Positions 11,941-63,903 of a DNA stretch of 64,000 bases are shown here, in pieces. Origin of the DNA: an uncultured Thermodesulfobacteriota bacterium (GTDB taxonomy: Bacteria > Desulfobacterota > WTBG01 > CAIYCZ01 > CAIRTM01); NCBI GenBank assembly GCA_964566035.1, contig CAZMHH010000002.1:64013-128012 (forward strand). Reading direction: 5' to 3'. Within the stretch, counting starts at the first letter, position 1. Each line of letters opens with the position of its first letter. The translations under genes and the position numbers were made by a program. Below the pieces are notes generated by a model. The model worked only from the letters and a program-made list of their open reading frames with translations. It had not been told where the DNA came from and ran no database searches.

Positions 11941-11942
11941 AA

Positions 11943-12254: not shown

Positions 12255-12480
12255 GAGATGTTGAACTGATAAGCTGTTATGCAAAACCTTAAGACCAGGA
12301 TAGAAATTTTTTGCTTGTAACAAAATTCTTTTCGTGGTTGTTTTCATAATCGACAATTTGAGCCTGAAAAAGCAGCAAACAGAACTCAGGAAAAGAAAAC
12401 AGCTGTTAACTTGGAAGAATTGAGCGGGTTTAAGCAATAAACCAATGATAATCAAATTTAATCTTTTTAAGGAGGGATAA

Positions 12481-14253
12481 GTGTTGCCCGAATACAAAGA
12501 AGGTAGGATAAAAAGTATAGCAGGTCCTCTTGTCATAGCAAAAGAGATGAAGGGCTGTCAGATGTATGAGGTTGTCAGGGTCGGTGAGGAAGGTCTGATG
12601 GGTGAAACCATAAGACTTGACGGTGATGAGGCATATATACAGGTATATGAGGACACTTCAGGTCTAAAACCCGGAGAAAAGGTTGCACGAACAGGCGAAC
12701 CTTTGTCGGTTGAGCTGGGTCCTGGCATTATAAAAAATTTCTATGACGGTATTCAAAGACCCCTTCTTCTGATCAAAGAGAAGGCAGGAGACTATATAAA
12801 AAGAGGTATTTATGTACCCGGTCTTGATCCGGATACCCAATGGGAGTTTACCCCTTCTGTTGAAAAAGGCGTTGAGCTTGAAGAAGGAGATATAATCGGT
12901 TCTGTGCCTGAGTCAAAGGTAATATCCCATAAGATAATGATCCCACCCGGAAAATCAGGAAAACTGGTTGAAATAAAATCAGGCTCTTTTACTGTAAATG
13001 ATGAAATTGCAGTTATAGAAAAAGACGGTGAAAGATTTTCCATTATAATGAAACAGAATTGGCCTGTCCGTAAAGACAGACCATTCAAGAAAAAGGTTGA
13101 CCCTAATGTACCGCTTCTTACAGGACAGAGGATTTATGACACATTTTTTCCTATAGCAAAAGGAGGTACTGCTGCAATACCAGGAGGGTTTGGCACAGGT
13201 AAAACCGTAAGTCAGCACCAGGTTGCAAGATGGGCTGACTCCCAGGTAGTTGTATACGTAGGATGCGGAGAACGCGGAAATGAGATGACAGAGGTTCTGG
13301 ATACTTTTCCTGAAATTGACGACCCTAAGACAGGGTATAAACTTATGGAAAGGTCAACCCTTATTGCCAACACTTCAAATATGCCAGTTGCAGCGCGTGA
13401 AGCATCCATCTACACAGGTGTTACAATTGCTGAATATTACAGGGATATGGGCTATGATGTTGCCATAATGGCAGATTCAACTTCACGCTGGGCTGAAGCT
13501 CTGAGAGAAATCTCCGGAAGACTTGAAGAGATGCCCGGAGAAGAGGGTTATCCTGCATATCTTGCAACAAGAGTGGCAAGTTTTTATGAGAGAGCAGGAA
13601 GGGTTATAACCATGGGTGCAGAAGAAAGATTTGGTTCGGTCTCAATTATTGGTGCTGTTTCCCCCCCCGGTGGAGATCTTTCAGAGCCTGTCTCGCAGAA
13701 CACACTCAGGGTTGTCAGTTCCTTTTGGGCTCTTGACTCTACCCTTGCAGACAGACGCCATTTTCCTGCAATAAACTGGTTAAGGAGTTACTCTCTCTAT
13801 CTGGACTTTACAAAGAGCTGGTATGATGATCATATATCCTCCAGGTTCAGGCAGCTTAGAAACAGGGCAATGGTTGTGCTTCAGGAAGAGTCTGAGCTTT
13901 CCGAAATTGTTCAGCTCATAGGACCCGATGCACTTCCTGAGCGAGAAAGACTCACTCTTGAAATAGCGCGAATGATAAGGGAAGACTTTCTGCAGCAGCA
14001 TGCTTTTCACAATGTTGATACGTTCTGTCCACTTGAAAAACAGAACCTTATGCTTGATACAATAATGCTTTTCTACGATCTGGCAGTTAATGCCCTTGAA
14101 AAGGGAACAGGAATTGAGGCGATAACCAAAGTTCCTGTTGTTGATGAAATAGCCAGAATGAAATATATAGAAAACCAGGATTTTGCAACACAGCAGGAGA
14201 AGCTTGTGGAAAGGCTCAGAGAACAATTCAATTCATTAGGAGAGTCAAAATGA
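12481..14253 (+). CDS. atpA: A/V-type ATP synthase catalytic subunit A
   Basis: 590 aa. Walker A GGFGTGKT. Carries the non-homologous insertion typical of A-subunits. GTG start preceded by AAGGAGGG. Confidence 0.95.
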
Positions 14254-15647
14254 AAGCTGATATAAAAACCAGAGAATACAGAACAGTAAAAGAGGTAGCC
14301 GGTCCACTGATGGTTGTTGAAGGTGTTGATGGGGTTGCTTATGGAGAGGTTGTTCGGATACGAACCGGCACAGGAGAGGAACGCACAGGACAGGTTCTTG
14401 AGTCAAGGGAAGGGCTTTCCATTGTTCAGGTATTTGAAGGAACCTCAGGTATAGACACACTTGATACAACTGTCCGGTTTACCGGCGATACCATGAAACT
14501 TGCAGTTTCAAAAGAGATGGTTGGCAGGTTTTTTGACGGACTTGGAAGACCTATTGACGAAGGACCAGAAATAATATCAGATATTCGCCTCGATATTAAC
14601 GGAGCTCCGATAAACCCTACTGCACGTGAATTTCCAAACGAATTTATCCAGACAGGCATTTCAACAATCGATGGCATGAACACCCTTGTCCGTGGTCAGA
14701 AACTGCCTATATTTTCAGGTTCAGGTATGACACACAATGAACTGGCAGCCCAGATTGCGAGACAGGCGCGAGTATTGAGCTCTGATGAACCTTTCTCTGT
14801 AGTGTTTGCTGCAATGGGAATAACAAGTGAGGAAGCAAACTTTTTTATGCGTGATTTTGAAAGAACAGGGGCAATGGAACAGATTGTAGCTTTCATAAAT
14901 CTCGCAGATGACCCTGCAATAGAGCGCATCATAACCCCCAGAATGGCTCTTACAACTGCCGAGTTTCTTGCTTTTGAATGTGATATGCACGTTTTAGTTA
15001 TGCTCACTGACATGACCAACTACTGTGAAGCATTAAGAGAAATAGCGGCTGCAAGGGAAGAGGTTCCAGGAAGAAGAGGATATCCGGGTTATATGTACAC
15101 AGACCTTGCAACAGCTTATGAAAGAGCAGGCAGAATCAGAGGCAGAAAAGGATCCATTACACAGATGCCTATACTTTCAATGCCTGATGATGATATAACT
15201 CACCCTATACCAGACCTTACTGGTTATATTACAGAAGGTCAGTTTGTTCTCACGCGAGATCTTCACAGAAGAGGGGTATATCCGCCGGTTGATGTTCTTC
15301 CGAGTCTTTCCCGTCTTATGAATCAGGGAATAGGCGAGGGCAAGACAAGGGAGGATCACCTGGGTGTTTCAGATCAGTGCTACGCGGCTTACGCTGAAGG
15401 AAGGGATGTCAGGAATCTGGTGGCAGTTGTAGGTGAAGAGGCTCTTACCGAGCGAGATCGAAAGTACCTGGAATTTGCCGATGCTTTTGAGAGAGAGTTT
15501 GTTACACAGCAAAGAGATGACAACAGAACCATACAGGAAACACTGGAACTTGGCTGGGATCTTCTCAGTGTTCTTCCGGAATCAGAGCTTAAGAGAATTG
15601 ACCAGAAACAGATAGAAAAATATCATCCAAAACACAGAAAACAATAA
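14250..15647 (+). CDS. atpB: A/V-type ATP synthase regulatory subunit B
   Basis: 465 aa. B-subunit fold without a canonical P-loop ([18 protein letters not shown]). Overlaps the atpA stop (ATGA). Confidence 0.95.
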
Positions 15648-15668
15648 AGATTCGGAGAATTAATTTAA

Positions 15669-16328
15669 ATGGCTGATACCATAGAAGGAATAAAGCCTAC
15701 CAGAATGGAGCTTCTGAACCTGCGCAAAAGGGTCTTTCTTGCTCAGCGCGGGCATAAACTTTTAAAGGAGAAACGGGATGCTTTAATATCCGAATTTCTT
15801 GCAATTGCGGGGACAGTTCGCAGCATGAGAAAAGAATCAGAAGAGCAGCTTGCAAAAGCATACAAGGATGTACTTACAGCCGAAGCTGTTATGGGAGCAA
15901 ACCTTGTAAAAGAGATTTCCTGGAATACGGAGCAGGATATAAATGTAAAAATGAGCTCTCGCAATATTATGGGGGTCTCTGTTCCGATCATTGACATGGG
16001 AAACATTGAAAGAAATGTTGTTAGAAGGGGATATGGATTTGCAGATACATCCTGTGCACTTGATGATGCATGCAAAAGCATGGAGAGGGTTCTCTCCTCT
16101 ATTATAAAACTGGCAGAAATTGAGGAAACGGTCAGAAAACTCGGTCTAGAGGTTGAAAAGACTAAACGCAGAGTTAATGCCCTTGAATATATTGTATTGC
16201 CAAAACTGAAAGCCACGCTAAAATATATAAGAATGAGGCTTGACGAGATAGAAAGAGAGAGCTTTATAAGGCTTAAAAAAATTAAAGCGGTTCTTGATTC
16301 AAAGGCAAAACAGGTTGAAGTGCAATGA
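15669..16328 (+). CDS. atpD: A/V-type ATP synthase subunit D (central stalk)
   Basis: 219 aa. Begins ...IKPTRMELLNLRKRVFLAQRGHKLLKEKRDAL, the hallmark N-terminus of subunit D. Confidence 0.9.
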   Translation: MADTIEGIKPTRMELLNLRKRVFLAQRGHKLLKEKRDALISEFLAIAGTVRSMRKESEEQLAKAYKDVLTAEAVMGANLVKEISWNTEQDINVKMSSRNIMGVSVPIIDMGNIERNVVRRGYGFADTSCALDDACKSMERVLSSIIKLAEIEETVRKLGLEVEKTKRRVNALEYIVLPKLKATLKYIRMRLDEIERESFIRLKKIKAVLDSKAKQVEVQ

Positions 16329-22252: not shown

Positions 22253-23944
22253 ATGAAAAAGAAAAAAATATTAATTGTATTGGTTCTTTCTGTTCTTTTG
22301 CTGTTCCTTATTTTTTTTGCAGTCGCTGCTTATTTATTTTCTCCAAAAGGCAATGAGTTTCTAAAAAATTATGCAGAGAAAGAACTGAACCAAAAAACAG
22401 ATATCCCTGTTGAAATCAAAACTCTTGAAATAAATTCGGGAAAAATTGTTCTGGAGATTTATTTTAAAGACAGCTCAAAAATAGTGTTTAATGGAAAATA
22501 TTCTCTTACCGGCTTATGGGCAAAAGGCGTCTATGATGCCGACATAAAAGACCTTTCAGTTCTGAAGGAATTTACCGGCAGAAAACTGCATGGTTCTCTG
22601 AAGATAAAAGGCAACCTGAAATGGGAAAAGGGTGAACTGAAATTTGAGGGCTTATCTGATATATTTGGGGGCAAATCATCTTTTTCAGGAAGCCTTAATG
22701 CACCTGTGATAAAGGATTTTTCCCTTGATATCCAGAAACTTAATGTAAAAAAGATGTTTGAGACCCTTGGTTTTCCCTTTTACACAACAGGAGATATAAA
22801 CGCGAGAGCGGATATTGCAAGCTTTAATCTCCATAGTAAAAAAATAGAAGGCAGGCTTGATATCTCCTCAAAAAATATAAGAACAGTTGATTCAGAGCTA
22901 AAAAGAACACTACAGCTTGACTATGTTGAACCAGTAAAGGCGGAGATTTATATTATCTCAAACTTTCAAGATACATTTGCAGTAATAACTGCCAATGTTA
23001 CAAGTAATATTGCCTCATTAAAAACCTCCCAAACAGCATTCGATCTTAGTACAAAAACGCTTGAGTCTGAGTATGAAATTTATCTGCCCGACCTTAAAAA
23101 ACTTAAATTTATTGCAGAACGCAATATGATAGGTGATTTGAGAGTCAAAGGCGATATAAAAAAAGAAGGTGAAATGATTTATTTCTCTGCATCAACCGGG
23201 TCTCTTGGGGGAAGCATTGCAATTGACTATAATAAAAATAAATTGACTGCAGAAATGAGAGATGTTTCAGCAGCAAAGGTAAGCTCTATGTTTGCTATGG
23301 ATGACATGTTTGGAAAAGGAGAGTTCAGTCTTGATGCAGATGCAGTTTTGTATGGAGAAAACAGGGAGGAAGTATTGAAAAACCTGTATGGAAAATTCCA
23401 TCTAAAGGGAAGAAACATTGTTTTAAATTTAATAGATATTGACGGTGTAATTGAGGGTTTGAGCCGAACAAAACAGATAAACCTTTTTGATATTGGCGCA
23501 ATAGCACTGGCAGGCCCGCTTGGTTTTGCCCTTACAAAAGCAGAGGATGTAAGCCGCACTGCTTACAGTTCATATGCAAGGGGCAGTAGCGTGATAAAAG
23601 AAATTAATGCCCAGTGGATTATAAACAGAGGAATAGCAGAAACAGAGGATGTTGCGTTTTCAACAAAAAAAAACCGCCTTGCTTCCAGGGGAAGGATAGA
23701 CCTTAAAAGCCAGAGGTTTTTGAACTTCAATATTGCTCTGATAGATGAACAGGGATGCTCAACATTTATGCAGCGGGTAGAGGGGAGGCTTACTAATCCC
23801 AAAGTATCGGCTTCAAAAACATTTGCTGAAACAGCAAGGAATATTTTTGATTCAATAGTATCAAAAGTGCCTGTACGGGAAGATAAGCAACAAAACAAAT
23901 GCGAATTCCTCTATAAAGGTGTTGTACAGCATCCTGTCAACTAA
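22253..23944 (+). CDS. AsmA-like / DUF748-type membrane-anchored periplasmic protein
   Basis: 563 aa. One N-terminal transmembrane helix (ILIVLVLSVLLLFLIFFAVAAYLF), followed by a long beta-rich Lys/Ser/Gly repetitive region, the architecture expected of AsmA-family proteins. Family assignment is tentative. Confidence 0.45.
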   Translation: MKKKKILIVLVLSVLLLFLIFFAVAAYLFSPKGNEFLKNYAEKELNQKTDIPVEIKTLEINSGKIVLEIYFKDSSKIVFNGKYSLTGLWAKGVYDADIKDLSVLKEFTGRKLHGSLKIKGNLKWEKGELKFEGLSDIFGGKSSFSGSLNAPVIKDFSLDIQKLNVKKMFETLGFPFYTTGDINARADIASFNLHSKKIEGRLDISSKNIRTVDSELKRTLQLDYVEPVKAEIYIISNFQDTFAVITANVTSNIASLKTSQTAFDLSTKTLESEYEIYLPDLKKLKFIAERNMIGDLRVKGDIKKEGEMIYFSASTGSLGGSIAIDYNKNKLTAEMRDVSAAKVSSMFAMDDMFGKGEFSLDADAVLYGENREEVLKNLYGKFHLKGRNIVLNLIDIDGVIEGLSRTKQINLFDIGAIALAGPLGFALTKAEDVSRTAYSSYARGSSVIKEINAQWIINRGIAETEDVAFSTKKNRLASRGRIDLKSQRFLNFNIALIDEQGCSTFMQRVEGRLTNPKVSASKTFAETARNIFDSIVSKVPVREDKQQNKCEFLYKGVVQHPVN

Positions 23945-28672: not shown

Positions 28673-30499
28673 TTATTCTTTTGCAAGCCGGTAAATCTTT
28701 GCTCCCAGATAACCCTCTTCCCTTTCATCCTCAGGCCAGTAGTTTGAGGGAAGAAGATTTGAAGCAGCAACATAGAGCTTGTCTTCAAATTCTGTAAAAG
28801 CCTCTATCTGGAGGATTGTTTTATCTCCAAAACCGTTTTGAAACACAGGGCTCCATGTATAAACTCCATCTTTTCCTGTCATCTTCCATAGATGCGCTCC
28901 TTCTATCTCATCAACTTTTTTCCCGAATTCAACATTGTTCTGATACGTGCCGGCATACATGGAATTTCCGAATGTATATAGATTCATACAAATAATTGAG
29001 GCATATCCCTTATTCATTCCAAACCCCCCCGGTACATCAGAATCGCCACCAACATTATACTGCCATGTAGGTGTTATTCCGTCATCCTGAAAGTCATTCT
29101 CTGAGCCTGTTTCTGTAAACATGATTCTTCCCCCGTCAAGAATTCTGGCAATAGATGTGAAAAGTTTCCCGTCGTATTCTGCCCAGTCCCAGGCTTGAAA
29201 ATTTGATTCAAAAAAATTTGTAGACCCATCTCCAAACCCGTTTTCATTAGTTCCCGTAGTATTTTCATCCACAAAATAATCTATAATAGGTGACCAGTCA
29301 CCGCTGTCGAGTTTGAACACCCTTGCCCCGATCCCGTTGCATCCTGTTGAACCTGTTCCGCCCACAAAGAGGGTCTCTTCTCCTGTTATAGTGCTTTTGC
29401 CGAATTTGTTTGAGCTTGAACAGACAGGACTCCCGTTTCTGTACTCCTGACTAGAAATTAAACATCCGTGCAAATTCAGGTTCCAGTCATATCCATGAAA
29501 AAGCCCGAAACTTCTCTTGGAGGATTTTTCCCAGTTAATTCCATCAGAGGTTTTCATGATGTGGGTTCCGCTTTCATAATTCAGTCCAATTGATGCATAA
29601 AGCTCATTGTCCAAGATTTCAAAATCAACAATGGTTTTATTCCAGAAATCTCCAAAACCGTTGATTCTGTCTCCGGTCATAATAAAATATTCCAAACCTG
29701 CTAAAAGCGCAGGAACTGTATATCCGGGACGGCCGGGTTCCCCCGGAACAAAAAATTCATCGCACCGGGTATATTCATTAAAATAGTCGGGGGTTCTATC
29801 AAGTTTTGCAGCAGCACATTCAGACTGTTGTACTGTAAGGGTATTTTCTGTATTACTGATTATTCTGAACACCCGTCCCTTGCTGTCAGATTTTTCATCT
29901 GTTATCCATAGGGTTCCTCCTGCCCATTCATTTTCATCCCAATCCTTGGCATAATCCGTGAAATCGGCTGTCTCATGGTCATCATCAAGGGAACAGCCAA
30001 AAATTTCATCTATTATGCCTTCTTCACTTTTATCAGCAAGCAAGTGTGAAATAACCGGTTCCCAGTCTTCTCCATCAAATCTCCATATTTCACAACCAAC
30101 TGATTTATATCTATTAGCTCCCTGAAACCCTGAAGATACGGCAACATAAAGATGTTCTTTAAATTCTATCATATCACCCCATATATTGTGCATAAATTCA
30201 TGGAAAATACCGTTGGTAAAGCCTGGTGCACTTACTTTCTCCCAACTCTCTCCTTTTGTATGCCACAACTCAAAACCTGATACATCATTGCGTGTAATGG
30301 CATAAAGACTTCCCTGAAAAGGAGTCATTGCCACAACAGAAACATTGTATTTATCTCCAAATCCGGCTACACTTACCCTTTCCCATACAGATCCGTCTTC
30401 ACCTTCAAGCTGTTCAAGGCTCTTTGGAACATTGTTTTCAGGAAAGCACCCCGTAAAAACAAATAATAAAAACAATATTGATAAAAATATCTTTTTCAT
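28673..30499 (-). CDS. Lipoprotein with ELWxxDG-like beta-propeller repeats; function unknown
   Basis: 608 aa. Lipobox FLLFVFTGC. Recurring blades (GFELWHTKGESW, EIWRFDGEDW, RVFKLDSGDW, HLWKMTGKDGVYTW) and many GFGD motifs. Confidence 0.6.
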   Translation of the reverse strand: MKKIFLSILFLLFVFTGCFPENNVPKSLEQLEGEDGSVWERVSVAGFGDKYNVSVVAMTPFQGSLYAITRNDVSGFELWHTKGESWEKVSAPGFTNGIFHEFMHNIWGDMIEFKEHLYVAVSSGFQGANRYKSVGCEIWRFDGEDWEPVISHLLADKSEEGIIDEIFGCSLDDDHETADFTDYAKDWDENEWAGGTLWITDEKSDSKGRVFRIISNTENTLTVQQSECAAAKLDRTPDYFNEYTRCDEFFVPGEPGRPGYTVPALLAGLEYFIMTGDRINGFGDFWNKTIVDFEILDNELYASIGLNYESGTHIMKTSDGINWEKSSKRSFGLFHGYDWNLNLHGCLISSQEYRNGSPVCSSSNKFGKSTITGEETLFVGGTGSTGCNGIGARVFKLDSGDWSPIIDYFVDENTTGTNENGFGDGSTNFFESNFQAWDWAEYDGKLFTSIARILDGGRIMFTETGSENDFQDDGITPTWQYNVGGDSDVPGGFGMNKGYASIICMNLYTFGNSMYAGTYQNNVEFGKKVDEIEGAHLWKMTGKDGVYTWSPVFQNGFGDKTILQIEAFTEFEDKLYVAASNLLPSNYWPEDEREEGYLGAKIYRLAKE

Positions 30500-30723
30500 G
30501 CAGTTACCTCCGTTAGAATTGGTTAAAGGGTTAATTCTTCCTATTAATATATATTATTAAGGTATATTTTTCAATAACAAAACGCCCCGTGAATAAATTA
30601 TAAACGGAGCAGTTGGTAAAAGGCTATATGTGATTATGGTATATACTGGGTAAACGATAGTTTGAAAATGATAACAAACAGAATAAGAGGGCAAAAGTAG
30701 ATAGTAAAAAATTCAAAAGAAGT

Positions 30724-31548
30724 TTATACCTTTTCAGTAGGTTGTTTTTTGCTAAAAAAGGCTGATTTAATGAAGACAAATGCCAAAACAGCGGCAAATA
30801 TCCAGCATAAAACAATTATTATGGAGAGAAGAGGGTTTTTGAGAAAGCCTGCTTTGTGAACTGTGCCAAAAACAGCAGCTGTCTTTTCTTCTGCATGACA
30901 ACTCATGCAGAGAGCTGTTTTTTCCTGCATTTTGCCGTGATTGACAGAATCAAAATGACAATCCATACAGTTGGCAGTTGTATTTGTACAGCCCAGGTTT
31001 TCCTTTCCGTGCCCTTTGATGCGGGTGGAAATAAAGGATAGATAAGGGGGGTCTGCCTCTTCAGGATGGCATGCGCCGCAGGTTTGGGCAATGTTATCGG
31101 GATGAACTGAAGAGGCCGGCTCATCAACAAGCATTACCTCATGGGTGGTGTGGCAGTCATAGCATTTTGGCGTGTCCGCTGCAAAACGGGGGTCAAGCAT
31201 GCTGTGGGTGCTTTTGTCAAAAGCCGCCTGAATATCCTCATGACATTCTGCACAGTTCACCTCGGGATATCCATCAGCAGGGTGCTCTTCAGGTGTTGCC
31301 TCTGTATGACAGTCAATACAGTTATAACCCATACTTCCGTGGATTGAGCTTAAGAAGGCGTCTTTATCAACAAACTGACTGACTTCTTTGCCTGTTTTTT
31401 CATCAACCCTTGTCAGGTTTCTGTCCTGATGACATTCAAGACATGCATCTATCTCGTAAGCGTAAGTACTTTCTGCACTCACCGAAAAGAAAATGGCTAT
31501 CAGCATAATAAAAATAAGAAGCACTATATTTTTTGATTTGACTGTCAT
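30724..31548 (-). CDS. Membrane-anchored heptaheme cytochrome c (periplasmic, C-terminal TM anchor)
   Basis: 274 aa. Signal peptide. Seven CxxCH motifs (CLECH, CIDCH, CAECH, CYDCH, CGACH, CMDCH, CMSCH). C-terminal hydrophobic helix LLSIIIVLCWIFAAVLAFVFI. Confidence 0.85.
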   Translation of the reverse strand: MTVKSKNIVLLIFIMLIAIFFSVSAESTYAYEIDACLECHQDRNLTRVDEKTGKEVSQFVDKDAFLSSIHGSMGYNCIDCHTEATPEEHPADGYPEVNCAECHEDIQAAFDKSTHSMLDPRFAADTPKCYDCHTTHEVMLVDEPASSVHPDNIAQTCGACHPEEADPPYLSFISTRIKGHGKENLGCTNTTANCMDCHFDSVNHGKMQEKTALCMSCHAEEKTAAVFGTVHKAGFLKNPLLSIIIVLCWIFAAVLAFVFIKSAFFSKKQPTEKV

Positions 31549-31559
31549 ATCTTTTTAAT

Positions 31560-33488
31560 TTACTCCATTGCCTTTAAAACAATTTCTGCGATATCAAGAC
31601 AAGAGACATCATCTGCTTTTTCCCTGACCTTTATCCCATCCTCAAACATGGTCAGACAGAAAGGACAGGCTGTTGCAACAGTATCAGGTAATTTTTCCAG
31701 AGCCTGATCTGTTCGCATCTCATTAATCCGTTGACCCATGTGCTCCTCCATCCACATCCTGCCCCCACCTGCTCCGCAGCAGAAACTCCTGTTTCTGTTT
31801 CTGTCCATCTCAACAAGGCTTAAGCCGTCGATGCCTTTCAAAAGCTCTCTTGGCTGGTCATAGATATTGTTGTATCTGCCAAGAAAACATGAGTCATGAT
31901 AAGCGATTTTTTTCTGCTCGGTCTTTTTTAATCTTATCTTCCCTGTCTTTACTAAATCAAGAATATATTCACTGTGATGATAAACCTCAAAATTTCCCCC
32001 ATGCTGAGGATACTCGTTTTTGAGCATATTATATCCATGAGGACATATTGCAACTATTTTTTTAATATTGTAATTGTTCATTACCGCTATGTTTTGCTGA
32101 ACAAGGGTATCGTAGAGGTATTCATTTCCAATCCTTCTCGCCGAATCCCCGCAGCAGCCCTCTTCTGAGCCAAGTATTACAAACTTAATTCCAGCCTTTT
32201 GCAAAATCTTTACTAAAGCTATAGATACCTTTTTATATCTGTCATCAAAAGCCCCTGCACAACCGACATAAAAGAGTATATCAAAATCTTCACTTTCTGC
32301 AGCTGTCTTTACCCCAAGGTCTTTTGCCCATTCTCCTCTTGAATGCGAACCCACTCCCCAAGGGTTGCTGTTATTTTCCATGTTTCTAAACACTGCCTGA
32401 ACCTCTTGAGGAAAGTTTGCCTCCATAAGTACAAGATACCTGCGCATTTCAATTGTCTTGTCAACGGTTGTTTCAAAAACAGGGCAGTGTTCATGACAGT
32501 TGAGACACATGGTGCATGACCATATTGTCTCATTTTCAATAATATCGCCTATCAATGCTCTGTTTGCAGCATCTTCTGATTTTGAAAACCCTTTATCCTC
32601 CATGTGTTTTTTTAAATCCTGAAGCAGTTTTTTTGGAGAGAGAGGTTTCTGGCTTAAATGTGCAGGGCAGTTATCCTGACATCTTCCGCACCGGGTACAG
32701 GCGTCAAGCTGAAAGAGCTGTTTTCTGGTAAACTCTTCAATGGTTGAAACCCCGAATGTTTCAGCGGTCTCAAAATCACTTATTGGCTCAATTACCCCCG
32801 GAGCGTCATATTTTCTTAGGAAAATCTGAACTGAAGAAGTAACGATATGAAAAAATTTGGTATAGGGAATAAATGCAATCAGAGCAAGAACAAGGATCAG
32901 GTGAATGCGCCATATAAGTGCATGTAACAGGGTTTGTGCCTCGTTTCCAAACGGAATAAAGAGGTATGAAAAAAGAAATCCTACAGGAGCATATTCCGCC
33001 CCCTGCCCGGTAATTGCAAGGCGAAGCCCCTCAATGCAGAAACCAAAGAATATGATGGCAAAAAGCCAGATGAGCGCTACAGCGTCTTCTGTTTTTGTAT
33101 CGCTTAATCGGTCGGGTTTTTGAATATATCTGCGGTAGGCAGCAAAGGCAATTGCCATAATCCCCAAGGCGCCGATTATGTCAAGAAACAAAGAGAATCC
33201 ATTTGCAATGTTTTGAGGGAGTTGAAAACGCAGGTTGACAGCAAATATTACAAGCAAAGGAATAATGCATGCTAAAAAAATAAGAAGATGCATTATTCCC
33301 GGATATTTCTCTTTTAATATCCTGCCATGACCTATGGCATACACAAAAAAATCTTTTATGCGCAATGCTGTGTTGCCTTGCGCATCGGAGCTTTTGCCCA
33401 TGTTCCAGAGTCTGAATCTTCTTGCGATTCCTGCTGAACATATTATCAGGGCAAGTATAACCAAAAGGGGGTCGATTAAAGAGAGCAT
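31560..33488 (-). CDS. Membrane-bound FeS oxidoreductase: N-terminal multi-TM cytochrome-b-like domain fused to an HdrD-like 2x[4Fe-4S] + 2xCCG domain (ETF:menaquinone-oxidoreductase 'EMO'/DUF224 type)
   Basis: 642 aa. About 5-6 transmembrane helices with conserved His residues. Ferredoxin motifs CTRCGRCQDNCP and CTMCLNCHEHCP. Two cysteine-rich CCG domains (..CCGDSARRIGNE.., ..FCCGAGGGRMWMEEH..). Sits immediately downstream of etfBA. Confidence 0.8.
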   Translation of the reverse strand: MLSLIDPLLVILALIICSAGIARRFRLWNMGKSSDAQGNTALRIKDFFVYAIGHGRILKEKYPGIMHLLIFLACIIPLLVIFAVNLRFQLPQNIANGFSLFLDIIGALGIMAIAFAAYRRYIQKPDRLSDTKTEDAVALIWLFAIIFFGFCIEGLRLAITGQGAEYAPVGFLFSYLFIPFGNEAQTLLHALIWRIHLILVLALIAFIPYTKFFHIVTSSVQIFLRKYDAPGVIEPISDFETAETFGVSTIEEFTRKQLFQLDACTRCGRCQDNCPAHLSQKPLSPKKLLQDLKKHMEDKGFSKSEDAANRALIGDIIENETIWSCTMCLNCHEHCPVFETTVDKTIEMRRYLVLMEANFPQEVQAVFRNMENNSNPWGVGSHSRGEWAKDLGVKTAAESEDFDILFYVGCAGAFDDRYKKVSIALVKILQKAGIKFVILGSEEGCCGDSARRIGNEYLYDTLVQQNIAVMNNYNIKKIVAICPHGYNMLKNEYPQHGGNFEVYHHSEYILDLVKTGKIRLKKTEQKKIAYHDSCFLGRYNNIYDQPRELLKGIDGLSLVEMDRNRNRSFCCGAGGGRMWMEEHMGQRINEMRTDQALEKLPDTVATACPFCLTMFEDGIKVREKADDVSCLDIAEIVLKAME

Positions 33489-33585
33489 AATCTGATTTCT
33501 TTGAAGAGGTTAATTATCAAATATAATTGAAACAACTCCAGGTACGGTCGAAAATATGTATCTGGAGTTGTTTTTTGTTTTCAAA

Positions 33586-34578
33586 TCAGTCTGCAAGCAT
33601 CTTTTTGAGTTCTTCTGTCAAAGGCGGAACAATTTTAAACAGATCATCAACCACGCCGTAATCGCATTTTGAGAATATCGGAGCCTCTTCGTCTTTATTG
33701 ATTGAAACTATGATTTTTGATGTACCCATTCCTGCATAGTGCTGAATAGCGCCTGAAATACCGCATGCAATGTAGAGGTTGGGGGAAACAACCTTTCCTG
33801 TCTGTCCAACCTGGTCTGATACAGGTCTCCATCCGGCATCAACTGCTGCTCGGGAAGCGCCGACTGTAGCTCCAATAACTTCAGCAAGCTCTTCAAGCAT
33901 CTTGTAGTTTTCAGCGCCCTTCATTCCTCTTCCTCCTGAAACAATTATTTCAGCCTCAGTAAGGTCAACCTTCCCTGCCGCGGTTTTTAAAACTTCAACA
34001 ACCTTTACCCTGATATCACTTTCGGAGATCTCTGGAGCAACATTAACAACCTCTGCGCTTTTGGATGTGTCAGGCTCTGCCGCGATTAATACATTCGGTC
34101 TTATTGACGCAATGCTTATATCAGTGTTTTGAAAGCTGACTTCGCAATATGCTTTTCCTGCATACATTGGTCTTTTTACAGATATATTGTCGTCATCGCC
34201 AAGCTTTAAATCAACGCAGTCTGATGCAAGACCTGCTCCTACACGGGCCGCTACTTTCGGAGACAGATCCCTTCCCAGCACGGTTGCGCCAAACAACACA
34301 GTAGAAGGCTGTTCCTTTGTTATAAGGTCACATAATGCCTTTGCATAGGCATCTGTTGTATACTGTTTGAGAAGATCATGTTCAACAATATATACTTTTT
34401 CAGCTCCATAGGGAGCAAACTTTTCTGCCAGAGCTCCTATGTCTTTTCCAAGGCATACAGCGCAAAGGGGCTCACCTTTTTTATCTGCTATCTTTCTGGC
34501 TTCACTTAAAATTTCAAAAGCAACTTTTCTAAGCTTGCCTTCTTCCTGCTCTGCAAATACCCAAATTCCTTTTCCCAT
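33586..34578 (-). CDS. etfA: Electron transfer flavoprotein alpha subunit
   Basis: 330 aa. The FAD-binding C-terminal domain ([39 protein letters not shown]) is characteristic of EtfA. Confidence 0.9.
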
Positions 34579-34612
34579 TTTTGTATCTCCTATATTTTTT
34601 TGTGGTCAACAG

Positions 34613-35425
34613 TTAAATTATTTTTGCTTCTTCTCTTAATGCCTTTGCAAGGTTTGCCGCTTTTTCTTCAGGACTTTCTCCCTGAATAATTTTTGCGGCT
34701 GTTCTTGCCGGAGGTGAAGAGAAATTGCCTGCTTTTGTTTTTGAGCCTGCAGCTCCAACGGTTGCAGTGTCAATTCCAAGGTCGGCTGCTTTTACAGGAT
34801 TAAGGGGTTTTTTCTTTGCTTTCATTATGCCGGGAAGGGAAGCATATCTTGGCTCATTGAGGCCTTTCTGAGTTGTTATAACACAAGGTACGGGCATTTC
34901 AAGAACCTCTTCTCCGCCGACAATCTGTCTGTGTACTTTAACACTCTTTTTGTCTTCGCCAACCTCTACTTTTATTACAAGTGAGGCATGTGGAATATTA
35001 AGATGTTCAGCAAGAGCTACTCCGACCTGTCCCTGGTCGTCATCGATAGCCTGCTTGCCGCAGAATATAAGGTCATACTCCATTTTTTTAATCTGCTCAG
35101 CAAGTATCTTTGCTGTAGTCATAGCGTCGCTTCCGTCAAAAGCAGGATCGTCAAGGTGATATGCATTATCAGCGCCCATTGCAAGACCTGTTCTTATCGC
35201 CTCAACACTGCGTGCCGGCCCAAGACATACAAGAGATACAGCACCTGCACCTGCTTTTTCTTTCTGCTGTAAAGCTTCCTCAATTCCAAACTCATCATAA
35301 GGGCTGATAATAAATTTAACCCCGTCGAGCACAACATCTGATCCGTCAGATTTTACACGGATCTGGGCTTCTGTGTCAGGAACCTGTTTTAAACATACAA
35401 TACTGTTCACATCATCCTCCATCAA
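34613..35425 (-). CDS. etfB: Electron transfer flavoprotein beta subunit
   Basis: 270 aa. N-terminal IVCLKQVPDTE and the ...DLIFCGKQAIDDD... motif are typical of EtfB. Confidence 0.9.
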   Translation of the reverse strand: MMEDDVNSIVCLKQVPDTEAQIRVKSDGSDVVLDGVKFIISPYDEFGIEEALQQKEKAGAGAVSLVCLGPARSVEAIRTGLAMGADNAYHLDDPAFDGSDAMTTAKILAEQIKKMEYDLIFCGKQAIDDDQGQVGVALAEHLNIPHASLVIKVEVGEDKKSVKVHRQIVGGEEVLEMPVPCVITTQKGLNEPRYASLPGIMKAKKKPLNPVKAADLGIDTATVGAAGSKTKAGNFSSPPARTAAKIIQGESPEEKAANLAKALREEAKII

Positions 35426-58622: not shown

Positions 58623-61175
58623 TCAGAACCCGCCAAGCCGGTAAGCGCCGTCCCCGGAGGTACCTGCATAGAGCACCGTGCCATCGGTGGAAAGTGCAAG
58701 TTGTAATATCTCTTTGGTATCCAGTCCCGTGCTGATATCCTGCCATGTCAATCCGCTGTCTGTTGATACATAGACACCACTTAATCTGCCGGAGGCATAC
58801 ACAACCCCGGGATTCGCCCGATCAACAATTATACTGGTAATATTAGCCTCGGGGTTCAAACCGCTGCTCGTATGCGACCAGCTTTGCCCGCTGTCCGTGC
58901 TTCGGTAAATGCCACTTTTATAAGTGCCGGCATACAGCACTGTGCGGTCGGCAGGATCAATCGCCAGAGATCTAATCGGGACTTCCGGCAGACCTGTTCC
59001 AATCTGCTGCCATGAAGCGCCTGAGTCAATAGACTTATAAAGTTCATACGGCAGCCTTGAGGCATACACGGTTTGTACATCCTCCGGATCAACTGCAAAG
59101 GTGATCAGATTAAAACCCGTCTCTGAATCCATTGCCTGACCCCACGTTTCTCCACGGTCATTTGAAACGTAAAGGCCGATTCCAGGCTGGTCGCAAAATT
59201 CATAATCAAATTCAATTCCAAAATCTTCCACCCAACATCTAAGTTTAGTCACGTTAGCATAGACTGTTGATGGATTTGATGGTGCGAATACGAACTCGAA
59301 GGGCACTATCGTCACTGGAACTGGAAAAACTTCCCAACTTGATCCGCCATCAAAGCTTGATACAATACCGTTTATATCTACCCCTGAGGTCAGTACATGA
59401 TCAGGATCCTTCGGATCAACCGCAATGGCGATTATTTCATTCAGGGGACGCTCCTTTAAGCTTTCAGATGGATTTGCATGGCCAATCCAGGTTTTTCCGC
59501 CGTCAATTGTAGAGAACACACCGGTCCGGCTCCCCGTATAAAGCCGCTTGGGGTTATCGCCAACCAGTGCCAGTACTTTCACTTCTGCACCTGTATAACC
59601 GGAACTCACATTCGACCAGGTCTGACCACCGTCAGAGGACAGAAACACCCCGCCGAGATAGCTGTTGATAAATACCCGATTAGGATCCCTCGGGTCACAC
59701 TGCATATCAATGGGCGTACCGCCGATAACGCCCGGAGGTCCCCATGTTCCGCTCTCTCTGGTATATGTATTCCATATTTCACCGGCGTCATCACTGCGAT
59801 ATACCGCAGATCCGGATGCAGCATAATAGACATTCGGATCGGCTTCACTGATTTCAACGCTGGTAAACATATCATCACCAAGCAACTTCTCCCAGCTTTC
59901 ACCGCCATTCGTTGAAAGAAACACACCCCCTGTATCTTCACCGGTAACCCCTGAAAGCTCTGACCCGCATCCGGCAAGCAGAATATCAGGATTTTCAGGA
60001 TGCATGTACAGGCTGCCGACATACAGATCCGCAAGCCCGTTTTCCTCTCCTATAATTTTCCAGGTTGCACCACCGTCGGTTGACTTTACAATGCCCACCC
60101 CTCCAGGTATTCCGGCCATACCGTCACTGTTGGCAGCTTCACGATCAAAAATCCCTGTTGACACATATAAAATGTTGGTATCGTTAGGGTCAATCCAGCA
60201 ATAGCGGGCGAGGTTGTCTCCGCGCCACAACTCCGTCCAGTTCTCTCCGCCATCTGTCGTCCGGTAAACAATTCCCTGCACACGATCGGTTTCCATACCC
60301 CATACAAGCTGTCCATCATCACTCCAACCCTGGCTTGATATTTCAGCCATGGCATATACTGTATCCGAATCATAGGGGTGTACGGTAAACCCTCTGAAAC
60401 TCAATGCCACTTTGTTGATCAAATCCTGATCAATACCGTTGATTTTTGCCTCCCAGTTGTTGCCCCCATCAATTGATTTATAAATTATTCCTGAATAACG
60501 GGTACCTGTCCAGACAATATCAGGGTTAATGTGGTCTACGGTAACACAAAAAACAGGAACGGAACTGTCAACTGAATCCCGAACCATGCCGTTGATACTT
60601 TTAACCCAGGTATTCCCATTGTCAGTGCTTTTATGGAGCCCTGCATTGGCATCAGTTACATACCAGGTGTTGTAATCATCGTATTTATATCTGATGTCAT
60701 AGCCGATTCCTCCAATGGGACCCCCAAGTCGAATCCAGGAATCCTGCATATAAGCAGGGGTTCCTTCAGCTTCGCTCATATTCATTTCAACGCTTATATA
60801 TTTTTCCTCTCCCGCAAGTATATCAATGTTTTCAGAAACAGAGATATAGTCGGTTGCAGACACAGTTATGGTATAGCTACCGGATGGAATATCTACAATA
60901 ACAAAATTACCTTCCTGGTCTGAAGTAGCAGACAGGTTTAAAGGCTCTGTGGTTACAAAAGCACCATCTAAGGGAAGGCCGTTGCTGCTGTCTGTTATTC
61001 TGCCGCTCAAAACCCCGTTTTCATTTGTGCACGAAACAGTATAAAATATTAAAACCGATAACAATAAGAGCGGTAAAAAAATTACCTTCTTCCTGAAAAC
61101 TCCTGTGGCACCTTTAATCATTTCTACTTCTGTAACCCTTTTACTCTTTTTTACTCTCATAACTGATCCTTTCAT
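58623..61175 (-). CDS. Exported BNR/Asp-box repeat beta-propeller protein with N-terminal carboxypeptidase-regulatory-like (CarbopepD_reg) domain
   Basis: 850 aa. Signal/anchor helix. N-terminal domain GRITDSSNGLPLDGAFVTT...GNFVIVDIPSGSYTITVSATDY. Twelve S-x-D-x-G-x-T-W repeats (e.g. SIDGGNNW, TTDGGENW, STDGGATW, STNGGESW, SSDGGQTW, TIDGGKTW, SFDGGSSW, SNDRGETW, SIDSGASW, STDSGQSW, STDSGLTW). Confidence 0.8.
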   Translation of the reverse strand: MKGSVMRVKKSKRVTEVEMIKGATGVFRKKVIFLPLLLLSVLIFYTVSCTNENGVLSGRITDSSNGLPLDGAFVTTEPLNLSATSDQEGNFVIVDIPSGSYTITVSATDYISVSENIDILAGEEKYISVEMNMSEAEGTPAYMQDSWIRLGGPIGGIGYDIRYKYDDYNTWYVTDANAGLHKSTDNGNTWVKSINGMVRDSVDSSVPVFCVTVDHINPDIVWTGTRYSGIIYKSIDGGNNWEAKINGIDQDLINKVALSFRGFTVHPYDSDTVYAMAEISSQGWSDDGQLVWGMETDRVQGIVYRTTDGGENWTELWRGDNLARYCWIDPNDTNILYVSTGIFDREAANSDGMAGIPGGVGIVKSTDGGATWKIIGEENGLADLYVGSLYMHPENPDILLAGCGSELSGVTGEDTGGVFLSTNGGESWEKLLGDDMFTSVEISEADPNVYYAASGSAVYRSDDAGEIWNTYTRESGTWGPPGVIGGTPIDMQCDPRDPNRVFINSYLGGVFLSSDGGQTWSNVSSGYTGAEVKVLALVGDNPKRLYTGSRTGVFSTIDGGKTWIGHANPSESLKERPLNEIIAIAVDPKDPDHVLTSGVDINGIVSSFDGGSSWEVFPVPVTIVPFEFVFAPSNPSTVYANVTKLRCWVEDFGIEFDYEFCDQPGIGLYVSNDRGETWGQAMDSETGFNLITFAVDPEDVQTVYASRLPYELYKSIDSGASWQQIGTGLPEVPIRSLAIDPADRTVLYAGTYKSGIYRSTDSGQSWSHTSSGLNPEANITSIIVDRANPGVVYASGRLSGVYVSTDSGLTWQDISTGLDTKEILQLALSTDGTVLYAGTSGDGAYRLGGF

Positions 61176-61202
61176 TTGTTTGCAGGTAAAAAATAAAGTC
61201 TA

Positions 61203-62843
61203 TTATTCTATCTTCAGTTTGTCCTGCTCCATCAAAATATCCGGTGTATCCCAGCCCTTCTGATCCATCAGGTCCTTGAATGCCCGGCGGTAGAGCAGGC
61301 GCACTGAAACATCCGCTGTTTTTGTATCTGAAGCATCAAACAGATATCTACTGTTATCTGTTTCAAAAGCAGCAAGCCGGTTGTCGCTTACCTCCCTGAA
61401 ATGACTCCAGTAGTTTGCCGTTGGTGAAACACCTGTCCAAAGTTCTTCCAGTATTCGGGCAAAAGCTTTTCCCGGCAGTCCGGCATAATATCCTTCTTCG
61501 GGATTGCCTGTACCACACCAGTCGGGTATAACATCTCCGCCAATCTGTGCAAGGCTGTCACCGTTTTCATCCAATGCCTCAACAATGAGTATCATGTGTC
61601 TCAGGGGTGAGTCTGTTGGAACATGATGTCCGGTTTTGTCGTTTGTAATGCTGATAGAAACACTGAGCCGGCTGTGTTCAATTTTTCCCGAAACACTCAT
61701 GGTCAAGGAATTCTGGAGCAGTTCCACATCAGCAGCGCCCGGCATTTTGTGGCTGTATATACGGCTCGGATCACGATAATATCCTCCCTTTTCGGGATAG
61801 ACAAAATAGTTGTAATCAACCTGAGGCATGTGGCAATCCTGACATGTCTGTCCGGTTTCAGGATCGCTGTAAGGGCTTTCAAGCCATTCTCCAAAGGAGT
61901 TATACACCGGCGTATCCCAGAACACTCCGAAATGACAGGGACTGCAGTAGGCGCTTTCTTCATATAGCGGGTGCCGGCTGACCCTGCGGGTGACATCATC
62001 AAACTGGGCAAAGAAAAGCTGCTGACCCTCTTCCGGACGGAAAAGCTTCATGGAAAGAACACCGGGATAATTGGGATAGGGGAGCCCTGTTTCATCATCC
62101 AGCAGTACATCCCCGATTTTATGACAGAAATCACAGAATATACCCTCAAGATGAATGCCCTCAACATGGTTTGGATCAACAGCATACGCCATACCGGGCA
62201 TGGATGCCGGACCAGGTACATGGCAGGTGGCACAGTTGCCTGATGTTGAAGGAAAGTCCAGTTTATACCCGGGTCCATAGTAGGGTTTTGACGGGTCGGG
62301 GGGAAGCGGTATAATCCCGTAATCTTTGACCGTTATATAACGGGTAAGCGGACTCTGATTACCCTCTACATCCGTGCCGTTGTACATGGTAAGAAACCGC
62401 TCATTTATGGCAGACTGGCTGTGGGCATCGTCAAGCCATTCAGGATAGGCTGGCATACAGTGCCCGCAGCTCTTAGAACCGTCAAGCCCTTCCATGGAAA
62501 ACCAGTCATAATCCGGATTGTCTGTGGTGTAGTAGGGTTTCAGGGTGATGGTCACATCGGAGGCATTATCCCGGGTCACGGTTTCCCAGCCTACAAAATA
62601 TCCTTTCGCCCAGGCAGTCACGGTAACAGGGGTGCTAAGTGCTATACTGCTCAAAAAGAAAGCGCCCAGATGCCCTGTTGTGGTTTTGTTCTCCGTTGCC
62701 TGAACCCTGACCGTTGCACCTTCTACAGGTCCCCTTTCATCTACTACCCTGCCCGTAACTGTTTCCTGAATATTGCAGCCGAAGAAGAAGGTAAACGCCG
62801 ATAAGGCGATCATACTGAAAACAGATTCTATCAATATCTTCAT
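61203..62843 (-). CDS. Tetraheme cytochrome c lipoprotein with N-terminal CarbopepD_reg-like domain
   Basis: 546 aa. Lipobox FFFGC. N-terminal GRVVDERGPVEGATVRVQA...GYFVGW beta-sandwich. Four CxxCH motifs (CATCH, CDFCH, CSPCH, CQDCH). CGHCM is CxxCM and was not counted as a heme site. Confidence 0.75.
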   Translation of the reverse strand: MKILIESVFSMIALSAFTFFFGCNIQETVTGRVVDERGPVEGATVRVQATENKTTTGHLGAFFLSSIALSTPVTVTAWAKGYFVGWETVTRDNASDVTITLKPYYTTDNPDYDWFSMEGLDGSKSCGHCMPAYPEWLDDAHSQSAINERFLTMYNGTDVEGNQSPLTRYITVKDYGIIPLPPDPSKPYYGPGYKLDFPSTSGNCATCHVPGPASMPGMAYAVDPNHVEGIHLEGIFCDFCHKIGDVLLDDETGLPYPNYPGVLSMKLFRPEEGQQLFFAQFDDVTRRVSRHPLYEESAYCSPCHFGVFWDTPVYNSFGEWLESPYSDPETGQTCQDCHMPQVDYNYFVYPEKGGYYRDPSRIYSHKMPGAADVELLQNSLTMSVSGKIEHSRLSVSISITNDKTGHHVPTDSPLRHMILIVEALDENGDSLAQIGGDVIPDWCGTGNPEEGYYAGLPGKAFARILEELWTGVSPTANYWSHFREVSDNRLAAFETDNSRYLFDASDTKTADVSVRLLYRRAFKDLMDQKGWDTPDILMEQDKLKIE

Positions 62844-63903
62844 TTCTTGAAATACCTTTATTTATCTTTATCCAACCTGGTATGTGCCGAATGTATTCTG
62901 TAAAAACATATAATTTTACATATACCTGTATATAGACAAATGTCAAGAATTTTCTTATGGTTAATTATTTTATGGAATAAGTTGAATAATTAAGAAGAAA
63001 CGGAGACCGGTTTTGTAGCTCACCTCTCTGAAATGCCTTCCAGTATTTAATTAAGATCATCTTCCACAAGGCTTATTTCGGCAAAACCTCCGCAAATGTC
63101 GCTGCCGACATACCAGTCATCTCCTATACCCAATGTTTCCCCGGTTATGGATGAGAGATATTCCCCTGTCACGGATCAATACCTGGCATTTCGTCCGTAT
63201 CCTGCTCCCGCAGTAGTATCCTGCAAACCCGTTGTAATACCATCCCTGCCTGTCTGCAGGATCAATCTGCTTTGCAATTAAAACCTCCCACTGGTTCCCC
63301 TCTTCTCCTAAAAATTCGCCGCTCATACATACGTTCCGGATCAGTTCTGCATACAATATCCATCTTCTGCCTTTTTTATCATCCAGAAAATCGGAATCAT
63401 CTACAAATTGCAAAGACCATCCCCGCCTGCGATAAATTCCATCCTGCAGGCAGGATACAATAAACCGATGCTCTCCGCATTAAAGAAGAACCTTTTGTCC
63501 CTCAATGCATTCACCCCAGAGCTCTTCAGTTATAAAAAGCTGTCTTACCATGATATCACACACAAGTCCCCTGTCCCGGACAACAGTTCTGGAACGGATA
63601 TAGTTATTGCTAATTACTTGCTCTCTGATGCTTTTGGTTTCCCTTTTCAGACTTTATTTACAGTCTTTTTAATGAAAAATATTTTTGTTCTAAGAGTAAT
63701 CAGAATCGTATATAATAAAAAATTCAATTTCAAGATAAACTAATTATGCGGTTACAATATAAGATAAAGTTCTATAATAAATTACAGTTCTTGAGTTCAA
63801 AATGTTTCAGTCAACTCTTTTTTCTTGACAGAATTCATGTGCATTGTAATAATTTAATTTACTTTGCTGAATACCATCAAACTTTAAAAAAGGGGATTTA
63901 TAA

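Follow-up and report, generated by a model that had tools for sequence, protein, structure and literature searches.

The window considered here is a stretch of 64,000 nucleotides (nt) from an uncultured Thermodesulfobacteriota bacterium (assembly GCA_964566035.1, contig CAZMHH010000002.1, positions 64,013 to 128,012 of the forward strand). Close to its end lie two neighbouring genes on the minus strand, which is the strand of every feature of the pair described below. The cytochrome gene (61203-62843) is an open reading frame (ORF) of 546 amino acids (aa) with matches in Pfam and NCBIfam, and the propeller protein gene (58623-61175), which encodes 850 aa when counted from its first ATG, matches Sortilin-Vps10, BNR and PSII_BNR. 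The propeller gene probably starts at Met6 (61160), giving a protein of 845 aa, since a Shine-Dalgarno-like AAAGGA precedes this codon and the public gene call is likewise 845 aa long. The spacer between the two ORFs measures 27 nt, or 42 nt if Met6 is the start, in which case it comprises positions 61161-61202 and includes the AAAGGA sequence. An earlier note on this DNA had correctly described the genes as adjacent and co-oriented; its gap of 28 nt is corrected by these measurements. The pair is read here, with a probability of about 0.6, as a horizontally mobile cassette that would encode a two-subunit haem protein working outside the cytoplasm.

The cytochrome and its first haem site

The cytochrome has more than 3258 homologues, and identity ranges from 60 to 73% among the best 120 listed; its nearest relative in the loci of species representatives (73%) belongs to a Thermodesulfobacteriota metagenome-assembled genome (MAG). 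It opens with a putative signal peptide bearing a PROSITE-type lipobox (aa 1-23, ending in TFFFGC23; 62775-62843), and a lipobox is found in 49 of 93 full-length homologues, where it is often followed by a linker rich in Pro, Thr and Ser. The adjoining β-sandwich of the CarboxypepD_reg or transthyretin-like type (aa 28-102; 62538-62762; Pfam PF13620, E 1.4e-8, 35.4 bits against a gathering cut-off of 32.3) is read as a stalk. It is confidently modelled, and its fold resembles the NTE domain of SusC (9hfj) and the transthyretin-like domain of carboxypeptidase D. The haem domain (about aa 105-370) contains the four CxxCH motifs recorded in the earlier note (aa 204-208, 237-241, 300-304 and 334-338; 61830-62234) together with a fifth motif that had been overlooked, CxxCM (C126-G-H-C129-M130; 62454-62468), which is invariant in an alignment of 20 homologues. 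The protein ends in an immunoglobulin-like (Ig-like) β-sandwich (about aa 371-546; 61206-61733), which is delimited by the predicted model and by the alignment to the structure 5ze8 discussed below. Its predicted local distance difference test (pLDDT) values exceed 90, and it presents a conserved loop, T-G-H406-H-V-P-T. Across phyla the mean column identity of the 20-homologue alignment is 66%. Outside the motifs only three His residues, H141, H365 and H406, are conserved at 95% or above, against five haem sites, and no non-motif Cys is conserved in the family alignments, C443 being variable.

The best match in the PDB is the low-potential pentahaem cytochrome c552 of Thermochromatium tepidum (5ze8), with E-values of 2e-8 for the family profile and 4.8e-8 for the fold; the single sequence reaches only E 0.008, and the relationship remains remote. 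The family profile alignment places the CxxCM on the first haem motif of 5ze8 (C-A-N-C-H), with the W..H..S helix coming next in both proteins, and the motifs of haem 2 align as well. The C-terminal region corresponds to residues 267-340 of 5ze8, where T-G-H-H-V-P-T is set against P-H-A-M-P-T-G, both Ig-like domains displaying an H-x-x-P-T loop. A further match, to NCBIfam ExtKL (NF040886; E 4.9e-8), scores 32 bits and so falls below the equivalog cut-off of 250. The c552 protein, Geobacter ExtKL and Gsu2801 have been grouped as the 'PHC' family (PMC11976967), and on these profile and fold matches the cytochrome is a remote member of the c552/ExtKL (PHC) superfamily. Because the CxxCM occupies the position of c552 haem 1 alongside four CxxCH motifs, the cytochrome is by its motifs of the pentahaem type. 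The region of about 450 aa that had previously been taken for a haem-bearing but unassigned domain does carry the haem sites, and can be assigned to a haem domain of c552/ExtKL type plus the Ig-like domain. The window protein nevertheless differs from c552 in several respects: the similarity is distant (E ~1e-8), a lipobox and a transthyretin-like stalk are added, site 1 is CxxCM, and the cytochrome has an obligate-looking propeller partner. The c552/PHC fold has also been linked to the archaeal nanowire AvECN (PMC11976967), and from this it could be supposed that the cytochrome builds a filament of similar kind, with the propeller protein serving as an assembly or anchoring factor. However, a lipid anchor with a stalk, and the fusion to a propeller of 700 aa that is found in some relatives, would be ill-suited to a stacked filament subunit, and this alternative is hardly credible.

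ExtKL is MccSep, the polysulfide reductase of Geobacter sulfurreducens, which comprises a five-haem cap and an Ig-like stem with a catalytic selenocysteine (Sec) in a D-G-U-P loop (bioRxiv 10.1101/2025.11.18.688581). An Ig-like stem is found at the same place in the window cytochrome, and its His loop can be compared with the Sec loop, the two loops not being aligned to each other. In contrast to MccSep, the window loop contains His406 and neither Sec nor Cys, and there is no conserved Cys that could act as a distal ligand of haem 2, a comparison made without a direct residue-level alignment to U325 and C239. MccSep is furthermore a soluble homotetramer that is linked to a porin cluster and not to a propeller. 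As the family conserves neither Sec nor Cys at the positions in question, the cytochrome is not regarded as an orthologue of MccSep. The reduction of polysulfide by MccSep shows that the PHC fold can be an enzyme.

Haem site 1 occurs in three forms. Among 83 relatives from related loci it reads CxxCH in 46, CxxCM in 31 and CxxCK in six, with both Cys residues present in all 83, and sites 2-5 are CxxCH throughout this set. All of the best 120 database relatives carry CxxCM. Among 150 cluster representatives CxxCM is again present in several diverged sub-lineages; nearly every sequence that covers sites 2-5 has CxxCH there. Position 130 alone splits M-type from H-type proteins, if a conservative Glu/Asp exchange at position 238 is left aside. 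The K-type comes out as monophyletic in a neighbour-joining tree, and the M-type makes up a single clade of 35, four H-type sequences being nested in it; this topology needs at least four changes. As interpreted here, the pocket stays intact while its proximal ligand residue is exchanged between His, Lys and Met, which argues that haem is still bound at site 1. A natural series of CxxCM, CxxCK and CxxCH at site 1 was not found in the searchable literature, where the sole paper found on CxxCM concerns an engineered variant. In distant cluster representatives (P0302, P0326, P0345, P0353 and others) His141 of the W..H..S helix is replaced by Met, which suggests a His/Met-ligated haem in these sub-families.

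A first motif with a proximal residue other than His is shared with NrfA, and the relatives of the window protein include the monophyletic CxxCK group. Haem c sites of the CxxCK type usually go with a dedicated lyase. The window protein differs from NrfA in having Met instead of Lys, in showing no sequence similarity beyond the motifs and in the absence of a dedicated haem lyase linked to the pair.

The propeller protein

The propeller protein has 6808 homologues, and the best 120 listed share 42-62% identity with it over about 83% of the query. Some 700 of its residues match Sortilin-Vps10, BNR and Ycf48 models, the Pfam hits being Sortilin-Vps10 (E 5.6e-37), BNR and PSII_BNR. The N-terminus consists of a hydrophobic signal that ends in a non-canonical TVSC49, after which comes a lineage-specific CarboxypepD_reg β-sandwich (aa 56-134; 60774-61010; Pfam E 1.3e-13 over aa 56-131; PF13620 score 51.5 bits against the cut-off of 32.3). 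Ten Asp-boxes are recognised under a strict definition and 13 under a relaxed one. Asp-boxes and model together delimit a first seven-bladed propeller (about aa 147-528, with Asp-boxes at 183, 234, 306, 365, 421, 461 and 513; 59592-60737) and a second (about aa 529-850, with Asp-boxes at 556, 607, 671, 715, 759 and 804; 58626-59591), the fourteenth blade being without an Asp-box. The best 25 PDB matches that Foldseek returns for the AlphaFold model (pLDDT 86, pTM 0.79) all belong to glycoside hydrolase family 74 (GH74; 5fkq, 6mgl, 2cn3, 1sqj), with E-values of 4e-31 to 7e-24, 14-17% identity and TM-scores of 0.55-0.66. Since the top fold matches of the model are all GH74, the protein is predicted to be two tandem seven-bladed propellers of GH74 fold with 14 blades in total. 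The earlier note had described twelve Asp-box repeats forming a 12-blade propeller of the sialidase or Ycf48 kind. The BNR/Asp-box character of the protein is upheld; the count is not, and a single propeller of that kind is set aside in favour of the GH74 double propeller.

The two catalytic Asp residues of GH74 enzymes belong to the first blades of the respective propellers. For 1sqj they are D35, within YARTDIGGAYRW, and D465, within SGIGDISGM, the latter position having been checked against the D465N mutant 2ebs. The resemblance of the window protein to the GH74 xyloglucanases and OXG-RCBH (1sqj, 2cn3, 5fkq, 6mgl) extends to the tandem seven-bladed BNR propellers and to an N-terminal GG.GY ... 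Y.TD motif, in which T174-D175 (60651-60656) is like the motif of the first catalytic Asp and is invariant in the alignment of the propeller family. The two differ in their low identity and at the position of D465 on blade 8, which is Gly, Ser or Arg in the window protein. The stretch in question is T547-G-S-R550, without any acidic residue at the position of the second catalytic Asp; hhalign puts D465 on R550, and R550 is conserved at 90% or above in the family alignment. This register was set by hand, as HMMER and hhalign slip by one blade owing to the repeats, and is not derived from a structural superposition. N504 and Y506 were considered as the second catalytic position and rejected, as they lie on blade 7 whereas the equivalent stretch is on blade 8. 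If the register set by hand is right, the second catalytic Asp is absent and the propeller protein would therefore not be a canonical GH74 hydrolase. The protein also matches NCBIfam NF045728, the F510_1955 family glycosylhydrolase, with 183.2 bits against a cut-off of 175, spread over six stretches of the 246-position model. This family takes its name from an Anoxybacillus lipoprotein without known function (PMC3948429), and so the name gives no guide to activity. A different comparison concerns the partner, as we know of no GH74 enzyme that pairs with a cytochrome.

Both proteins of the window carry an N-terminal domain of the same Pfam family, and the earlier note had reasoned from this common domain to a module in which both partners are jointly targeted or anchored. 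The family assignment holds for both; a special relatedness of the two domains does not, BLASTP giving 22% identity at E = 0.036. Only the cytochromes keep the domain throughout; of the best 120 propeller homologues just four have it (P0121-P0123 and P0188). It is better regarded as a widespread stalk domain whose presence on both proteins is incidental; as a hallmark of the pair it was rejected, and the reasoning drawn from it lacks support. The other propeller homologues among the best 120 possess lectin-like 3keto-disac_hyd (DUF1080), esterase, CHB_HEX_C, FlgD_ig or type IX secretion (T9SS Por_Secre_tail) domains. Of these accessory domains, DUF1080, the esterases and the type IX secretion tails are of the sort usually seen on carbohydrate-active enzymes that are secreted, as with GH74, and this is a hint that the substrate may be a polymer. 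Most of the cytochromes are lipoproteins and have Pro/Thr/Ser linkers; most of the propeller proteins have plain signal peptides.

Pairing across genomes

A scan of one genome per species yielded 522 cytochrome loci, of which the best 80 were examined. These are mostly from Chloroflexota, with others from Planctomycetota, Thermodesulfobacteriota, Acidobacteriota, Spirochaetales, 'Thermotogae' and further groups, and the hosts of the pair, put at hundreds of species, are mostly anaerobic bacteria. In 45 of the 80 loci the cytochrome gene has a propeller homologue as its immediate neighbour, read from the same strand. The scores of these neighbours range from about 150 to 800 bits and mostly exceed 400, shorter or truncated ORFs giving about 150-290. 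When the count is confined to loci flanked by 2.5 kb or more on each side, adjacency is found in 29 of 50; in another six a homologue lies no more than 2.5 kb away or is the neighbour on the other strand. Broken down by site-1 type, adjacency in these well-flanked loci amounts to 17 of 21 for the M-type, nine of 24 for the H-type and three of five for the K-type. The propeller gene precedes the cytochrome gene in 44 of the 45 adjacent pairs; the window shows the rarer reverse order, which is also seen in L087/L088. The reciprocal look-up agrees, as three out of three propeller homologues adjoin a cytochrome with a CarboxypepD_reg domain in contexts that are otherwise unrelated, two of them with type IX secretion tails. 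The pairing of cytochrome and propeller protein, which the earlier note had proposed from the window, is real.

Two loci add detail to the survey. In L052, a Thermodesulfobacteriota MAG, two propeller paralogues lie near a CxxCK-type cytochrome: the adjacent one, of 762 aa, is the best match to the window propeller, and the other, which carries CarboxypepD_reg (P0188), is located 2.4 kb away on the opposite strand. The closest relative of the window propeller (P0122) begins about 200 nt from the contig end in two independent assemblies (L090/L091), and a close cytochrome relative (P0004) from the same ENA sample lies on a separate contig (L002) and has no propeller gene beside it. In this sample the pair may be split by a repeat or by an assembly break.

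A search of 1.8 billion cluster representatives returned 3935 cytochrome relatives at E <= 0.001, and in some of them both partners are joined in a single chain. In the fusion P0248 a complete propeller (residues 32-720, 45% identical to the window protein) precedes the cytochrome (1201-1734). P0246 comprises a lectin-like domain, a propeller (281-972), a CarboxypepD_reg stalk (980-1034) and the cytochrome, and its junction contains no signal peptide. In another relative (P0244) two S-layer homology domains stand ahead of CarboxypepD_reg, which indicates anchoring to the cell wall or S-layer in some hosts.

These results bear on the alternative that the two secreted proteins function independently, one as a GH74-type glycanase and the other as an electron carrier, and that their genes simply travel as a pair. 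The GH74 fold, the 'glycosylhydrolase' match above its cut-off, the weak agreement of the two trees and the absence of adjacency in about 40% of the well-flanked loci would all fit such independence. However, the proteins occur as single-chain fusions, adjacency is kept across several phyla while the other neighbours differ, and the second GH74 catalytic Asp is missing in the register set by hand, so that independence is judged very unlikely.

More distant cytochrome relatives (P0269, P0253 and P0330) are fused to propellers of other kinds, namely YncE/lactonase/d1-type or PD40, and further carry CCP_MauG or RoxA-like cytochrome domains or an HZS_alpha middle domain. The joining of a haem domain to a propeller thus seems to be a recurring design in the cytochrome superfamily. 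In hydrazine synthase, as Dietl and co-workers are said to have described in 2015, a β-propeller gives the substrate site of a c-type haem domain its shape. The propeller of cytochrome cd1 nitrite reductase likewise shapes the site for its c-type haem domain. The window pair differs from both in its BNR/GH74 double propeller, in its haem domain and in lacking any nitrogen-cycle context. A small-molecule sulfur or nitrogen oxidoreductase, acting on polysulfide like MccSep or on nitrite like NrfA, in which the propeller would have a structural role comparable to that in hydrazine synthase, has nevertheless to be weighed. It draws on the E-value of the ExtKL match, on the CxxCK variant of site 1 that recalls the catalytic haem of NrfA, on the distal His residues that are too few for five haems and on the distant relative fused to the HZS_alpha middle domain. 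On the other side, no conserved Cys or Sec matches C239 or U325 of MccSep, the Ig loop holding H406 and C443 being variable; the ExtKL score is far below its cut-off, and no nitrogen- or sulfur-cycle genes are found among the conserved neighbours of the surveyed loci. An oxidoreductase of this kind is therefore regarded as distinctly unlikely.

Clustering of the flanking ORFs in 79 loci revealed no further broadly conserved neighbour. Genes for peptide ATP-binding cassette (ABC) transporters and ABC exporters occur in 11-16 loci, mostly of Chloroflexota, and were rejected as members of the module because they are read as lineage synteny. Neither in the 79 loci nor beside the pair in the window is there an outer-membrane porin or another conserved third gene, and the linked porin and multihaem cytochrome that characterise porin-cytochrome clusters for extracellular electron transfer are lacking in both. 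This is relevant to the alternative that the pair is an electron-transfer terminal, i.e. that the cytochrome reduces or oxidises minerals, humics or partner cells at the cell surface and that the propeller is no more than a scaffold or adhesin. ExtKL was first proposed as an electron-transfer component and its family is related to the archaeal cytochrome nanowire (PMC11976967). The surface signals of the proteins, namely the lipobox, the S-layer homology fusion of P0244 and the type IX secretion tails of partners, agree with such a terminal, as does a second envelope multihaem cytochrome that is encoded in the window. Set against these, the cytochrome has just five haem sites and a conservation that is unusually high for a conduit, the cassette contains no porin or quinol dehydrogenase, and the activity now established for ExtKL is the reduction of polysulfide. 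A terminal of this sort is accordingly thought unlikely.

The base composition of the two genes sets them apart. The cytochrome gene has a GC content of 49.1% (z = 3.5) and the propeller gene one of 47.0% (z = 2.6), the two highest values among the genes of the window, where the other 36 average 41.0 +/- 2.3% with a maximum of 44.6%. The outlying GC content and the lack of conserved flanks fit a horizontally acquired two-gene cassette, and suggest that the pair is mobile and was acquired recently. The genes for AOR and ferredoxin lie on the plus strand and end at 58486. The cytochrome-propeller pair is convergent with them and so stands outside their transcription unit. The earlier note had tied the pair to this Hdr-Flx/AOR locus; that link is abandoned in view of the convergent orientation, flanks that are different in every related locus and the deviating GC content.

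A proposed two-subunit haem protein

The view that the two genes form a cassette for a two-subunit haem protein is supported by the adjacency in 45 of 80 loci, the reciprocal look-up and the fusions. In the searchable literature nothing relevant was found on a cytochrome-propeller pair or on 'carboxypeptidase regulatory-like' cytochromes. The suggestion of an undescribed two-component module outside the cytoplasm, already made in the earlier note, is to this extent sustained. The location outside the cytoplasm is predicted from the lipobox, together with the signal peptides, type IX secretion tails and S-layer homology fusion of relatives.

It is proposed that subunit 1 would be a lipid-anchored cytochrome in which the stalk is followed by a haem domain of PHC fold with five sites and then by the Ig-like domain, with its His loop. 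Subunit 2 would be a secreted protein, lipoprotein-like in the lineage of the window, whose GH74-fold double BNR propeller would provide a binding cleft or part of the active site. The propeller would dock on the cytochrome, the two being one chain joined via the stalk domain in some organisms, and the cleft between the propellers could keep a bulky or polymeric substrate near the haem chain. Electrons would then run along the haems between carriers of the envelope and the substrate, with the haem of site 1 as a functionally tuned end of the chain whose proximal residue has been exchanged in evolution (His, Lys or, as here, Met). The domain architectures, the adjacency, the fusions, the export signals and the confinement of the His/Lys/Met variation to site 1 have been shown, and from them physical association of the subunits, haem occupancy of the CxxCM site, catalysis over mere electron carriage and the nature of the substrate are inferred.

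An enzyme would fit better than a conduit, because conservation is very high, the haem count is small, distal His residues are few, ligand tuning is confined to one haem and MccSep provides a precedent. As to the substrate, organic matter of a polymeric or particulate kind, such as glycan-bearing material, can be put forward tentatively; a mineral or humic acceptor, which would imply extracellular electron transfer, is a doubtful choice, and a small sulfur or nitrogen compound is equally doubtful. The boldest version of the proposal is a new class of haem enzyme in which a GH74-type double propeller devoid of one hydrolytic Asp presents a polymer, for instance a glycan or organic matter that bears glycans, to a pentahaem cytochrome with a Met-ligated CxxCM haem for redox-assisted attack under anoxia; as a whole this is improbable.

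Several points weigh against the proposed haem protein. Adjacency is absent in 21 of the 50 well-flanked loci, the CxxCH type in particular having it in just nine of 24, and the fusions are known as metagenomic gene predictions at the protein level only. The distance matrices of the two proteins correlate weakly (Mantel r = 0.26, a value reached by none of 2000 permutations), and such weak agreement implies a reshuffling of partners among lineages. Neither a quinol dehydrogenase nor any other component for electron input is part of the cassette. The predicted haem domain has a pLDDT below 50 for aa 104-371, and the AlphaFold model is unusable there for active-site geometry. The CxxCM site may be free of haem, forming for example a disulfide, since the Ccm system of E. 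coli requires the His of CxxCH. HCCS likewise attaches no haem to cytochromes that lack this His (PMC4158909). CX2CM does not appear in a 2024 list of known haem c motifs (PMC11492766), and no dedicated haem lyase gene is linked to the pair.

Several other features of the window may be mentioned. A weak candidate for a sigma-70-like promoter (TTGACA, 16 nt, TATATG; 62919-62946, minus strand) lies about 75 nt upstream of the cytochrome ATG, and it is not reported by the promoter scan, its -10 hexamer ending in G. Just upstream of the cytochrome gene and on the same strand is an ORF of 98 aa (63117-63413), which is called in the public contig and has no significant Pfam match; the same lack of a Pfam match holds for an ORF of 563 aa on the plus strand (22253-23944). 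The minus-strand stretch 28673-35425 begins with EtfB (34613-35425) and EtfA (33586-34578), after which come a membrane protein (31560-33488) in which a NarI-like cytochrome b is fused with FeS clusters and CCG domains, a cytochrome of 274 aa with seven CxxCH motifs (30724-31548) and an ORF of 608 aa without a Pfam match (28673-30499). Together these genes resemble an Etf-linked route for electrons across the membrane, with a periplasmic heptahaem cytochrome at its end, and such a route could feed envelope cytochromes like the one of 546 aa described here. A V/A-type ATPase cluster on the plus strand (7279-16328) includes subunit I (7279-9234) and subunit A (12481-14253), the nearest named relatives of subunit A (73-74% identity) being from Deltaproteobacteria and Desulfobacterales MAGs. 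These relatives and the nearest one of the cytochrome point to a probably diderm host within Desulfobacterota.

Each of the folds involved is known, and so are enzymes that combine a propeller with haem. As far as the searchable literature goes, what is new is this pairing and the series of CxxCM, CxxCK and CxxCH at site 1. The relatives of the cytochrome are labelled merely 'carboxypeptidase regulatory-like domain-containing protein' or 'hypothetical' in the sources, and for this reason annotation gives no sign of a haem protein. Across Chloroflexota, Planctomycetota and Desulfobacterota, phyla that dominate anoxic sediments and groundwater, the cytochrome ranks with the best conserved of its multihaem kind. 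The compact unit of two genes, or sometimes one, is an easy target for expression and structure determination, which makes the role of a GH74-shaped propeller for a cytochrome a question that can now be tested. If haem c is attached at CxxCM with Met as the proximal ligand, this would widen the known set of haem c motifs and would bear on the substrate rules of the maturation systems.

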